Notes under the pieces: model-generated
What the model saw: the letters and a program-made list of their open reading frames with translations, nothing else
Database searches by the model: none
What the model was told of the DNA's origin: nothing
IMG/VR virus record: IMGVR_UViG_2778261513_000006
Location: 1-10,374 of that record
DNA: 10,374 nucleotides
Direction: 5' to 3' (one strand)
Source: a virus
Taxonomy: Duplodnaviria; Heunggongvirae; Uroviricota; Caudoviricetes
Position numbers and translations under genes: made by a program
Shown: in pieces, positions 1 to 5,742 of the stretch
Numbering within the stretch: position 1 is the first letter of the stretch
Layout of the letters: each line of letters starts with the position of its first letter

Positions 1-1374
1 ATGTTAGTTAGTAAAAGCAACGGATTTAACGCTAGCGCAGTTTTGGGTAGTGGAAGTTATAATGAAAATAAATCTTCTAAACACATGGAGCTACTAGCTC
101 ATAGTATTTTAAAATTAATTTGTAAGGAAGCTGCATCAGAGACGTATCGCGGTGCTCTTGAAACTTTACAAAAAATGATGTCTGAATGTATATATCAAGA
201 AGGCAACGCCTTTGTCATTATGGGAGCTGGAGAACAATTAAAACGTATTAAATATGAAGTTGGTGAAAATAACTTAAAGGTATTCAACGTACACTTTAAT
301 AATAATCACGAGTTAGTTAGTTCTGGTGAGCCTGACGTAATATGTTTAAGCAAGCAGGTCTGGGAAAATCTTCTCATTAAACTAAAGCTGGAAAACAATG
401 AAAATGTGTTTTCTGAAACTAAAAAATTATCGAATAAAAATAATGCCGATCAGTTTTTTGAATGCGCTAAAAGAAATGAACAGAACCTTTTCGATAATAT
501 AAGAAAAAGTGATTTTCATGTTGGTTTACTTAAGCCAAGTAGTACGCGTAGTGTTATTTTAGAAACGCCGCCAAATGTCTGTATGGAATCACGTAATTCA
601 TATGAAAACAAAATAGATGAGATTTCATCTTTGTCAGAGTCAAAGGAACACCCCATAGATATTCAAGAAAAAAAAGATGCGTTTGTGAATGAGTTCAAGG
701 GGATATTATTTGATAAAAATGGAAGGTCTTCAGAGTTTCTACTTAATTTTTATGAATGTTGCTATGAGTTTTTACCAAGAGCGCAGCCTCAGGATAAAAT
801 CGAAAGCTATAATTCAGCACTGCAAGCTTTCTCCATCTTTTGTTCATCTACGTTGATACATAATAATATAGGCTTTGATTTCAAATTATTTCCAGAAGTC
901 AAACTGTGTGGGGAAAATCTTGAAACGGTATTCAAATATAAAAATGGCGATGATGTCCGGGAGATAGCCAAAATTAACATTACTCTCCAAAAAGAAGAGG
1001 ATGGTTTATATAATTTAGGTGGATTGGATTTTAAGGGATGCTTCTTTTCTGGACAGAACTTCAGTAACTATGATATTCAATATGTGAACTGGGGAACGTC
1101 ATTGTTTGATCTTGATACTCCGTGTATTTTTAATGCGCCTGCTTACAACAAGAGTAATGAAAAATCATTAAAACCTGTGAGCGAAAACGGTTTAAGTGGA
1201 GTCTTGACTGATCGTAATAATAAAATAAAACTCATCACGGGCGTGGCACCATTCGATGATATTTTATTTATGGATGATGACTTTGATGATAGTTCCTCTG
1301 AGGATGATCCCGTTGAGAATAGTCCTGTTGTGACTAGTCCCGTTGTATCAAGTTCTAAAAGCAGTTTTCAATGA
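1..1374 (+). CDS. Hypothetical AT-rich protein of unknown function (457 aa as given); short pentapeptide-repeat-like segment and acidic Ser/Pro-rich C-terminal tail; possibly a secreted effector-like protein
   Basis: Long uninterrupted ORF from position 1 to TGA at 1372-1374. ATG at 1-3, but the frame may continue upstream of the window, so the N-terminus is uncertain. Very AT-rich by eye. Protein has a segment resembling pentapeptide/beta-helix repeats (LGGLDFKGCFFSGQNFSNYDIQYVNWGTSLFDLD) and an acidic tail (DDDFDDSSSEDDPVENSPVVTSPVV). No catalytic motif recognised. Confidence 0.5.
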   Translation: MLVSKSNGFNASAVLGSGSYNENKSSKHMELLAHSILKLICKEAASETYRGALETLQKMMSECIYQEGNAFVIMGAGEQLKRIKYEVGENNLKVFNVHFNNNHELVSSGEPDVICLSKQVWENLLIKLKLENNENVFSETKKLSNKNNADQFFECAKRNEQNLFDNIRKSDFHVGLLKPSSTRSVILETPPNVCMESRNSYENKIDEISSLSESKEHPIDIQEKKDAFVNEFKGILFDKNGRSSEFLLNFYECCYEFLPRAQPQDKIESYNSALQAFSIFCSSTLIHNNIGFDFKLFPEVKLCGENLETVFKYKNGDDVREIAKINITLQKEEDGLYNLGGLDFKGCFFSGQNFSNYDIQYVNWGTSLFDLDTPCIFNAPAYNKSNEKSLKPVSENGLSGVLTDRNNKIKLITGVAPFDDILFMDDDFDDSSSEDDPVENSPVVTSPVVSSSKSSFQ

Positions 1375-1496
1375 TTAATAAATGGCTATTTTTACAAAGA
1401 GATAATAACGTAGATTGAAACAATATGTATTATTGATTGATTAAACGGGATTATTTTTTACACTACAACCATTTTGCTGCCACTACCAAAGAAAAA

Positions 1497-1534
1497 GGGG
1501 CTACGCTTTCACGTAACCCCTTGATTTATTTGTT
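1497..1534. terminator. Candidate rho-independent terminator hairpin, possibly bidirectional
   Basis: Stem GGGGCTACG (1497-1505) / CGTAACCCC (1512-1520) with one mismatch, loop CTTTCA, followed by TTGATTTATTTGTT on the + strand; preceded by AAAAA, which gives a T-run on the - strand. Lies about 120 bp downstream of the 1..1374 ORF. Confidence 0.35.
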
Positions 1535-1640
1535 GAGCTGGCGGTGTCTGAATTGGTGCTGTAATTGGTTGAAATATTTATTCTAATGTCTGGTTCAACT
1601 TTCCTTAGCTGCCTGAAAGTTTTTTTGATCTTACCCATCA

Positions 1641-2040
1641 ATAATAGGGTTACGGTACACCACGCCTGACTGATGAACTGCGTGCTCAGGGTTACCTCTT
1701 CAACGTAAAACCGTGGCAGGAGGTCCGGACTGAAAAAACTGCTCAGGACATTATCGGCGGTGGACGCACGGGTAGTCTGTAAACCGAACCGACTGGGGCG
1801 CAGTATGTGGCATCTTGTCGTGCTGTTGGAGGAGCTGTGCAAACGTGGTATTAACTTTCGTGCTCTGGCCCAATCTATATTTGCCCAACAATGGGGGGAC
1901 GAATGCTGTAAAAGTAAAAGAATCTGCGATCTCAAAGTTATTGTGTGATTTTTATGTGAGCAGAAGATATTCATCAGAAACGATTATGTAAATCATTTTA
2001 TTTTGCCGACGACCTGATTGTCGAAAGAAAAGAATACCCC
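1641..2040 (+). pseudogene. Serine recombinase (resolvase/invertase family) relic, multiply frameshifted and truncated
   Basis: Reading the + strand across three frames gives, in the right order and spacing, hallmark resolvase/invertase motifs: IIGY/GYG..RLTDE (N-terminal IGYxRVS-like strand), RSGLKKLLRTLSA..ARVVCKPNRLGRSMWHLVVLLEELCKRGINFRALAQSI (LDRLGRS plus G..F.SL.ESI region), TMGGR (PMGR-like) and ADDLIVERK (ELIVERT-like helix). At least three frame changes and no intact start codon, so it is non-functional. The track ORF 1760..1948 (+) is one in-frame piece of this relic. Confidence 0.6.
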
Positions 2041-2286
2041 CGTATTCCCTGAATAGATTGACTTTTTTATCCAACCATACTTCAGCGCACTGCGTTTAAA
2101 AAATGCTTCTTTCTTATGTGGAATATCATCATTTCATCATGATGTCTTTGATGAGCGGTGAACACAATACACTTGCGCTGTCTCTTCAGGATGAATCCCC
2201 TGGTCTGGTGCCTGTGGGCTGATGTTGCAGCAGAGCTAAGGTCGCTTAAACGCTACTCAGTATTCACTTTTCAGAGGATGAAATTT

Positions 2287-5200: not shown

Positions 5201-5542
5201 CATTTATCCAATGGCATGGAATCGAAATCAGTCGATACCCGCAGTTTATATCGTGAACTGGGTGCAACGCTGAGTTACAACATGCGTCTGGGGAACGGTA
5301 TGGAAGTTGAGCCGTGGCTGAAGGCGGCTGTGCGCAAAGAATTTGTCGATGATAACCGGGTGAAAGTGAATAGTGACGGTAATTTCGTCAATGATTTGTC
5401 GGGCAGACGTGGAATATACCAGGCAGGTATTAAAGCCTCATTCAGCAGTACGTTAAGCGGGCATCTTGGGGTGGGGTATAGCCATGGTGCCGGTGTGGAA
5501 TCCCCGTGGAACGGGGTAGCTGGTGTGAACTGGTCGTTCTGA
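2287..5542 (+). pseudogene. AIDA-I/Ag43-type (type Va) autotransporter adhesin, disrupted by a frameshift in a G5 run at 5172-5176; translocator domain appears shortened
   Basis: ORF 2158..5187 (likely true start ATG 2287, with AGAGG about 9 nt upstream; signal-peptide-like MNRTSPHYCRRSVLSLLISALIYAPPGMAA). The passenger is built of about 19-aa Gly/Thr-rich repeats of the form GG.Q.V..G..A..TTI.. typical of AIDA-like beta-helix adhesins, followed by longer repeat units of roughly 100 aa. The separate ORF 5216..5542 encodes the C-terminal beta-barrel strands and ends in the typical aromatic terminus ...GVNWSF. Removing one G from GGGGG (5172-5176) joins the two frames into ...NWNLTPYASLTGFTADNPEYHLSNGMESKS.... 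Only about 150 aa of beta-domain-like sequence remain, where about 250-300 aa are usual, suggesting an additional internal deletion. Confidence 0.75.
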
Positions 5543-5551
5543 CCATCAACG

Positions 5552-5578
5552 AAAAAGCCCACATCTGTGGGCTTTCAT
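5552..5578. terminator. Candidate rho-independent terminator hairpin, better U-tract on the - strand
   Basis: AAAAA then stem GCCCAC (5557-5562), loop ATCT, stem GTGGGC (5567-5572), then TTTCAT. On the - strand the hairpin is followed by TTTTTC. Lies just 3' of the autotransporter remnant and on the host/island side of the att core. Confidence 0.4.
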
Positions 5579-5704
5579 GTCACCAGGAGCCGCGGCTCCT
5601 TTGCGTATCCTTTTATGTCTCTTCACCGTCTGGTCGGTGTCCTGCTGAGACTGCTAACTTCCTGTTTTTATTGGTGTTGTCCTTATACCGTCCAATCATG
5701 ATTG

Positions 5705-5742
5705 GCTGGCGGGAGTTGAACCCGCGTCCGAAATTCCTACAT
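5705..5742 (-). other. Prophage attachment-site core: 38-bp fragment matching the tRNA-like 3' region (T-arm plus start of acceptor strand) of tmRNA gene ssrA
   Basis: The - strand reads ATGTAGGAATTTCGGACGCGGGTTCAACTCCCGCCAGC. It contains a canonical T-arm (GCGGG-TTCAACT-CCCGC) and, as I recall it, matches the region just before the ...CUCCACCA 3' end of enterobacterial tmRNA. Both flanks diverge from ssrA, so this is an isolated core copy, not an intact gene. The integrase lies about 1.7 kb to the right and is transcribed toward it. Confidence 0.6.

Follow-up and report, generated by a model that had tools for sequence, protein, structure and literature searches.

Fossil ssrA junctions in the Escherichia coli ileY–ssrA interval suggest a composite graveyard of earlier elements beside a P2/186-like prophage

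We analysed a stretch of 10,374 nt (the window; positions 1 to 10,374 of IMG/VR virus record IMGVR_UViG_2778261513_000006), in which the integrase-proximal end of a P2/186-like prophage meets, at an attachment (att) core made of the 3' end of ssrA, the gene for transfer-messenger RNA (tmRNA), the DNA that flanks it. Our main finding concerns this flank, 1-5742, which we regard, with a probability of about 0.7, as an accessory block extending from the tRNA gene ileY to ssrA, in which approximately 1469-5704 is a graveyard of earlier elements that had integrated at the ssrA 3' end. Rather than being one island, the region combines a duplicated autotransporter cassette with what is left of different ssrA-integrating elements, numbering at least two and probably three. 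Three kinds of direct observation carry this reading, namely junction homologies, an empty site, and a presence/absence polymorphism beside ssrA. A preliminary description of the same DNA had proposed an older, decayed island stacked at the att site; fossil junctions and the polymorphism support the stacking, while a single island spanning 1-5742 has to be given up for a composite. For annotation, the prophage ends at 5742 and the DNA left of 5742 is pre-existing attB flank; this flank does not belong to the core chromosome but is accessory, pieced together from older elements that targeted ssrA. The features of the left segment are the following.

1-1374, plus strand: ypjCB, an intact open reading frame (ORF) of 457 amino acids with about 33% GC (Pfam DUF5507 and DUF5508; NCBIfam YpjCB, 942 bits).
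1469-1530, minus strand: flank A, a copy of the terminator arm that P2-like (Peduoviridae) ssrA phages place downstream of ssrA (76/77-nt match, 96%, to strain AZ147).
1531-1544, minus strand: scar 1, a degenerate copy of the last 15 nt of ssrA (alignment A1).
1545-1606, no strand given: right-arm sequence of a CP4-57-type (P4-like integrase) island (ungapped 77-nt alignment).
1721-1879, plus strand: pinH', a serine DNA invertase remnant with residues ~42-94 only (Pfam Resolvase, E 1.1e-8; tblastn; RefSeq partial recombinase).
1902-5551, plus strand: ypjA/ehaD cassette, consisting of a leader with a 39-codon ORF (2103-2222) and ypjA (2287-5542).
5057-5069, plus strand: junction of a 1320-bp in-frame (440-codon) deletion in ypjA, with 13-nt microhomology.
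5176-5190, plus strand: additional G (+1) at 5176 in ypjA, leading to a double stop at 5185-5190.
5552-5704, minus strand: terminator hairpin (5552-5576) and flank B (alignment A2; homology to the LLS attP arm).
5705-5742, minus strand: scar 2, which serves the resident P2/186-like prophage as att core (identical to the 3' part of ssrA at 38/38 positions).

The junction at 1469-1606 is composed of sequences from two different kinds of element. Positions 1469-1544 match, at 96% over 77 nt, the sequence directly downstream of the real ssrA in strain Ecol_AZ147 (AZ147) together with the last 15 nt of that gene. Cartapus and other P2-like ssrA phages carry this ssrA-downstream sequence of AZ147 as their attP arm on the ogr side. 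The P2-type arm is truly phage-borne, because an attP reconstructed by joining what follows ssrA in AZ147 to the ssrA 3' end and then to the window from 5743 onward is contiguous in the sequenced phage Cartapus, where it lies between ogr/gp32 and a cargo gene followed by int (93.7% over 492 nt). Scar 1 reads T-GTTGAGCTGGCGG against TGGTGGAGCTGGCGG in ssrA, and at 'GCTGGCGG' the similarity switches from the P2-type arm to a CP4-57-type arm. The ungapped alignment of 1530-1606 with psaA of K-12 and the right end of CP4-57 scores 64, against 19.7±2.5 for shuffled sequences (0 of 300 reach it, about 18 standard deviations), and the four-way alignment A1 displays the recombinant junction directly. 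As such, 1469-1606 is what would be expected from integration of the CP4-57 type, which crosses over within the last ~14-15 nt of ssrA, into an ssrA that already had the arm of a P2-like prophage next to it, and the junction is the fossil of two successive events. Flank A probably derives from an older P2-like prophage, as the fossil of its ssrA-proximal end, and scar 1 with the CP4-57-type arm forms a fossil attR junction.

Scars 1 and 2 have the same orientation, and these direct repeats of the ssrA 3' end bound 1531-5742. A look further left, as the preliminary description had proposed, was thus rewarded in part, with a second ssrA 3'-end scar and its element arms at 1469-1606; the ORFs of 1-5742 held no tyrosine integrase, no integrase remnant and no IntA-type integrase with island genes. 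Left of ypjCB, near the glaH boundary and in 1-5700 beyond scar 1, no further ssrA scar rose above shuffle level. As a separate observation, the peptide GYGTPRLTDELRAQGYLFNVKP (window 1648-1713, plus strand, frame 3 of 1612) has a weak likeness to the HTH_21 domain of transposases of insertion sequences (IS) of the IS3 family (E 0.013, below the Pfam cut-off); it lies in the stretch that separates the CP4-57-type arm from pinH' and may have been left by the IS responsible for the deletions here.

By BLAST against 5426 complete E. coli genomes, the collection behind all genome counts given here, 1-5742 is the E. coli interval from ileY to ssrA. Named as in K-12 and read along the window, the interval and its borders run ileY, ypjC/ypjB (one fused gene, ypjCB, in the window), pinH', ypjA, the ssrA-linked element, ssrA and smpB, and the left segment is 97.4% identical to ypjC-ypjB-pinH'-ypjA of K-12. 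ARAGORN and Rfam found no tmRNA or tRNA gene inside the window. CV839-06 and ETEC1747 have the left half at 100% identity, and AZ147 has the right half (5743-10374) at 100% identity; in AZ147, the left half is about 97-98% identical, ypjA is intact and an intact ssrA follows beyond the prophage. No single genome of the collection matches both halves perfectly.

The query for the predicted empty junction consisted of window 5250-5704 followed by the full ssrA and was counted at 80% query coverage or more. This junction, in which the ypjA flank runs into an intact ssrA in one continuous match, is present in 1386 of the 5426 genomes, with 100% identity among the top matches listed; W2-5, for example, has ileY, ypjCB::IS5, pinH', ypjA (the same deletion allele), ssrA and smpB. 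Since the segment adjoins ssrA without the prophage, it is pre-existing attB flank and not prophage cargo, and the question raised by the preliminary description, whether genomes lacking the prophage still hold the segment next to ssrA, is answered in the affirmative. That the segment might nevertheless be cargo of the resident P2/186-like prophage, the att core of which it adjoins, is refuted by these prophage-free genomes; moreover, the att core divides the segment from the phage arm, and sharing with Cartapus is found only right of 5742. The derivation of this core from ssrA, which had been proposed at the outset, is real. To its left, two further bases (5703-5704) and a 5-nt deletion (alignment A2) are the mark of a displaced, decaying ssrA 3' tail.

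Beside ssrA, the block itself is polymorphic: it is carried by ~55% of the E. coli genomes and missing from ~44%, with ypjCB in 3078, the scar 1/pinH' region in 3004, and ileY with its spacer in 3013 of them. In Nissle 1917 (B2), glaH is followed by ~680 bp and then ssrA, all from ygaQ' to ypjA is absent, and only 226 bp upstream of glaH and 5552-5742 are common with the window. Homology in NC101 stops just upstream of glaH, as in Nissle, and CFT073 is without ileY and its spacer. Among GTDB species representatives, in which loci were located by GlaH, E. whittamii and Escherichia sp. E1V33 have the same glaH–ssrA arrangement as Nissle. The glaH–ssrA slot of E. ruysiae is filled by ~9 kb of other cargo (locus L017, 690-9900), with umuDC-like genes and a PRK09951 protein. 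In E. albertii (locus L013, 1-6240), which lacks ypjCB, pinH' and ypjA, the locus comprises ygaQ at 67% identity, an ileY region at 75% identity and ORFs that match no family. In Citrobacter, Salmonella and Klebsiella, no ssrA lies within 10 kb of glaH. The alternative named in the preliminary description, a conserved core chromosome, thus fails, as the block is present in little more than half of the genomes and absent from Nissle 1917, E. whittamii and E1V33. The variable region stops at window 5552 or 5553 in each locus with a captured flank B (Nissle, E1V33, E. whittamii and E. ruysiae). In other strains, parts of the region were lost through IS-mediated deletion (PMC3032704).

Several candidate readings of this locus were rejected. 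CFSAN061772 is an IS1/IS2-associated deletion variant and not the ancestral state; the ileY match in BL21-RIPL is not the native locus, the tRNA gene lying beside integron/plasmid-type genes and murB in what looks like a helper-plasmid copy or a misassembly; and a likeness, noticed by eye, of the 333-bp spacer of Nissle to scar 1 and its arm is not significant (score 26 against 19.8±2.4 for shuffles, reached by 7 of 300). A 'pre-island' state with ypjCB and flank A joined directly to ssrA occurs in 0 of the 5426 genomes. Just outside the window, ygaQ (alpha-amylase family; locus L003, 16362-18614, with equivalents in L001 and L004) is a pseudogene in all four fully read E. coli annotations (K-12, AZ147, CV839-06 and W2-5), some other feature lists naming ygaQ without a pseudogene label; the E. 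albertii copy is a 747-aa ORF.

Flank B (the 153 nt between ypjA and scar 2) and its hairpin immediately follow ssrA in Nissle, E1V33, E. whittamii, E. ruysiae and those E. coli that have an empty site; in K-12, this unit is found beside psaA. Window 5552-5736 is 85-88% identical, over ~190 nt, to the attP arm of the lambdoid phage LLS (PQ299149), with the left limit at 5552/5553 in phage and host loci, and the unit of hairpin and flank B is homologous also to the arms of phiNP and PhiR12 phages. LLS is reported to integrate at the ssrA 3' end and to carry a DNA invertase together with tail fibres that can be inverted (PMC12315714). Read in window orientation, LLS has, one after another, tail fibres, the Fin invertase (plus strand), ~3 kb of small genes, terminator/arm, ssrA 3' end/attP and int (minus strand), and PhiR12_4, Citrobacter phage phiNP and LLS are alike in having a tail-fibre module, ~1-3 kb of morons, the arm and att. 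Beyond the arm, no LLS DNA match exists in the window, and LLS structural, integrase and moron genes are lacking from it. In Salmonella enterica subsp. houtenae (locus L210, 7596-7670), the ssrA flank resembles the ssrA-proximal arm/terminator of CP4-57 in K-12 (score 60 against 16.5±2.1) and is followed by an IS and no island; thus, every ssrA flank examined is of element type. We infer that flank B is the arm of an LLS-like prophage and hence phage-derived rather than native, based on its homology. Selection for the ssrA terminator might then set the deletion limit at 5552, with only the DNA beyond the terminator being free to be lost or replaced. Matches of flank B to more than 119 IMG/VR contigs were left aside, since provirus calls from isolate genomes may include host flanks.

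The heavily degraded serine recombinase noted in the preliminary description is present as pinH', which survives as ~53 of ~183 codons with stops on both sides. It matches Pfam Resolvase positions 48-102 of 145, and both the N-terminal catalytic serine region and the C-terminal DNA-binding (helix-turn-helix, HTH) part are missing. By tblastn, pinH' is 55% identical to residues 42-94 of the Fin invertase of phage LLS (E 2e-12). It is located upstream of the flank B arm in the orientation that Fin has in LLS; no tail-fibre gene is left, and Fin-family invertases occur in many elements. Here we suggest that pinH' may be the invertase of the same LLS-like prophage that would have supplied flank B. 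The longest ORF of the pinH' region, a 157-aa ORF on the minus strand (1501-1974), was rejected as a recombinase, as it has no family match and overlaps the true remnant on the opposite strand, and it is probably spurious.

Between pinH' and flank B, the ypjA cassette has an origin of its own. It is paralogous to the ymgJ-ycgI locus near minE in K-12 (locus L214, 9211-9918), with 88% identity at 1902-2257 and 96% at 5198-5552, and the K-12 copy of that locus has lost nearly the whole autotransporter while keeping the leader and the last 355 bp. The higher identity of the 3' ends (96% vs 88% for the leaders) suggests gene conversion between ypjA paralogues. For ycgV, which was also considered as a paralogue, no DNA match was found, the real paralogue being the ymgJ-ycgI locus. 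Because the cassette, with its limits at 1902 and 5552, adjoins pinH' (which ends at 1879) on one side and flank B on the other, ypjA seems to have replaced the 3' half of the invertase and the DNA up to the terminator. The cassette is thus a segmental duplicate and not demonstrably original island cargo.

The allele of ypjA in this window is a pseudogene, and its identification as the orthologue of YpjA/EhaD, an AIDA-type (type Va) autotransporter, is by DNA identity. In addition to the 1320-bp deletion and the frameshift, a third difference from K-12 is a harmless 6-nt in-frame deletion. The passenger has AIDA repeats in 12 stretches, the last 108 aa of the beta-barrel remain as a separate ORF (5216-5542), and no complete repeat passenger with beta-barrel exists in one frame here. 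The autotransporter adhesin pseudogene of the preliminary description therefore holds for this allele, with its deletion and frameshift, and not for the gene at large, which is intact in many strains, K-12 and AZ147 (1526 aa) among them. The ypjA family was reported to be biofilm-associated in other strains (PMC9289746).

ypjCB, the leftmost gene, lies left of, and hence outside, the ssrA scars. The preliminary description had it as an AT-rich, effector-like ORF with lesions, of which the AT-richness stands; the gene is intact and without lesions, and with only DUF5507, DUF5508 and NCBIfam YpjCB matching, nothing tested supports the effector-like label. Elsewhere ypjCB is broken, being split in K-12, interrupted by a stop in AZ147 and by IS5 in W2-5, and affected by an IS1 deletion in CFSAN061772; it is often inactivated, independently each time. 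Of 437 YpjCB homologues, the named ones among the top 120 listed are all from E. coli except for one 'Enterobacteriaceae bacterium', the others being nameless; alleles are unusually divergent (80-98% amino-acid identity), and no relative was found in the PDB. YpjCB thus looks like an orphan restricted to E. coli. That ypjCB came as a moron with the old P2-like phage has no clear support: no phage homologue was found, and its PHROG match, which may stem from predicted prophage regions rather than sequenced phages, is not independent.

A different source for the left part, ypjCB and the remainder of 1-1468, would be an island integrated at ileY rather than an ssrA element. Its tRNA gene is immediately left of the window with the 3' end facing ypjCB from ~750 bp upstream, E. 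albertii keeps ileY with different downstream content, and the GC content of ypjCB is ~33%. However, no direct repeat of the ileY 3' end was found downstream of ileY, no integrase was found, and in E. coli ileY goes together with ypjCB, either both being there or both missing (3013 vs 3078 genomes); we consider an ileY island quite improbable.

Several observations weigh against a graveyard of ssrA-integrating elements in 1469-5704 and the block around it. Between the two scars there is no integrase, no structural phage gene and no LLS-type ssrA scar, and therefore the link between pinH' and flank B is drawn from position and orientation only. Flank B abuts ssrA in 4 of 4 Escherichia species or lineages with a captured ssrA (E. 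coli, E. whittamii, E. ruysiae and E1V33) and therefore could be a native flank that was copied by phages. Neither the block-present nor the block-absent state is derivable from the other by one simple deletion; block-lacking genomes contain a 333-bp stretch which has no counterpart in the block and is orthologous across Nissle, E1V33 and E. whittamii at 79-88%. YpjCB has no homologue in phage genomes (50,697 phage records), and, given that ypjA is intact and biofilm-associated elsewhere, the block is not simply eroding junk.

Much of this could be accommodated if the segment were ordinary resident chromosome, with flank B being native and copied by phages, ypjA and ypjCB being accessory genes, and pinH' and 1469-1606 being debris of illegitimate recombination. 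Besides the position of flank B in all four lineages and the lack of an integrase between the scars, such an explanation can draw on the segment standing beside ssrA in the 1386 prophage-free genomes, on the intact ypjA of K-12 and AZ147, and on the cassette duplicating a chromosomal locus. It does not sit well, however, with the absence of the block from ~44% of E. coli, from E. whittamii and from E1V33, nor with 1469-1606 being the exact expectation for CP4-57-type integration next to a P2-type arm. In addition, the invertase remnant is oriented as in LLS, and the ssrA flank of S. houtenae is the arm type of another element and not flank B. We consider resident chromosome unlikely and favour the graveyard of earlier ssrA elements.

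Based on this preferred reading, a history can be proposed. Each integrating element would bring its own ssrA 3' end and terminator and would push the previous 3' end and flank outward, so that the outward order would record history. First in this order would be scar 2 (5703-5742), displaced by the resident P2/186-like prophage, and second flank B with its terminator (5552-5704), of the LLS-like arm type. Third would be the ypjA cassette, the ymgJ-ycgI duplicate, at a place where LLS-like phages carry morons, followed as fourth by pinH', the putative remnant of a tail-fibre-type invertase. The CP4-57-type right arm (1545-1606), fused at 'GCTGGCGG' to scar 1 (1531-1544), would be fifth, and flank A (1469-1530), a P2-type arm, would be sixth and outermost. 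Accordingly, a P2-like phage would have arrived first and a CP4-57-like island second, with an LLS-like phage probably coming next. Deletions and the insertion of ypjA would have followed, before the present prophage entered last.

More tentatively, and with slightly less than even odds in our estimate, no native ssrA 3' flank may survive in Escherichia, the tmRNA terminator being everywhere an LLS-type attP arm that was fixed before the species diverged and that limits deletions at 5552. If true, the series of LLS-type, CP4-57-type and P2-type arms could serve as a stratigraphy to order and date prophage arrivals across the genus.

To the right of the att core, the following features belong to the resident prophage.

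5743-10374: left end of the P2/186-like prophage (int-proximal).
5743-5855: int-side attP arm.
5872-7413, minus strand: GapS1 (NCBIfam, 401 bits).
7407-8426, minus strand: integrase.
8430-9068, minus strand: CI repressor.
Also within 5743-10374: apl/cox-like gene (annotated 'Rha family transcriptional regulator') and CII-like genes.

The slot between att core and integrase is a variable hotspot of defence cargo: it contains the anti-phage gene GapS1 here, CV839-06 has an anti-phage dCTP deaminase in it, and Cartapus has a RES-domain protein. Of the 5426 genomes, only 2 have the version with GapS1, while ~1300 share the sequence that begins at the integrase. The prophage of AZ147 is reduced to ~9 kb, with a truncated replication endonuclease gene joined to the D gene and ogr.

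The present analysis offers a worked example of how arm fossils of 60-190 bp, recognised via the attP of sequenced phages, can be used to reconstruct the order of integration at a hotspot, and it illustrates that the terminator of an RNA gene of essential function can be supplied by an element. Its general significance is modest, because elements are already well known to pile up at the tmRNA gene and these genes have annotations in K-12. The closest known arrangement is ypjC-ypjB-pinH'-ypjA with the psaA scar beside the cryptic prophage CP4-57 in K-12, which shares with the window the gene order from ileY up to the island at ssrA, a flank B next to a displaced ssrA end, and pinH'. In K-12, however, ypjCB is split and ypjA is intact, whereas here ypjCB is one intact gene and ypjA is deleted and frameshifted; likewise, CP4-57 uses the last ~14-15 nt of ssrA, whereas here a P2/186-like prophage with a 38-nt core is resident. 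A paper on CP4-57 excision mentions none of attR, attL, psaA and ypjA.

Phage LLS resembles the window in its attP arm, in an invertase upstream in the same orientation and in a moron region between invertase and arm, but only 53 invertase codons are left here, and the crossover core of LLS is unlike that of the resident prophage. The Peduoviridae ssrA phages (Cartapus, Fels-2, SEN8 and RE2010) have attP sequences that match flank A and the resident arms, and they share the variable cargo slot between att and int; in contrast to them, the older copy in the window is cut to a 62-nt arm and 14 nt of ssrA. On a broader scale, K. P. Williams ('Traffic at the tmRNA gene', J Bacteriol 2003) is said to have described how genomic islands and prophages accumulate in tandem at the tmRNA gene, a process in which several integrase families reportedly use nested positions of the ssrA 3' end, the gene is restored each time, and older elements are displaced outward and decay. 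Compared with such tandem accretion, only arm fossils of ~60-190 bp and one invertase fragment of the older elements remain here, and one slot is filled by a duplicated chromosomal autotransporter cassette.

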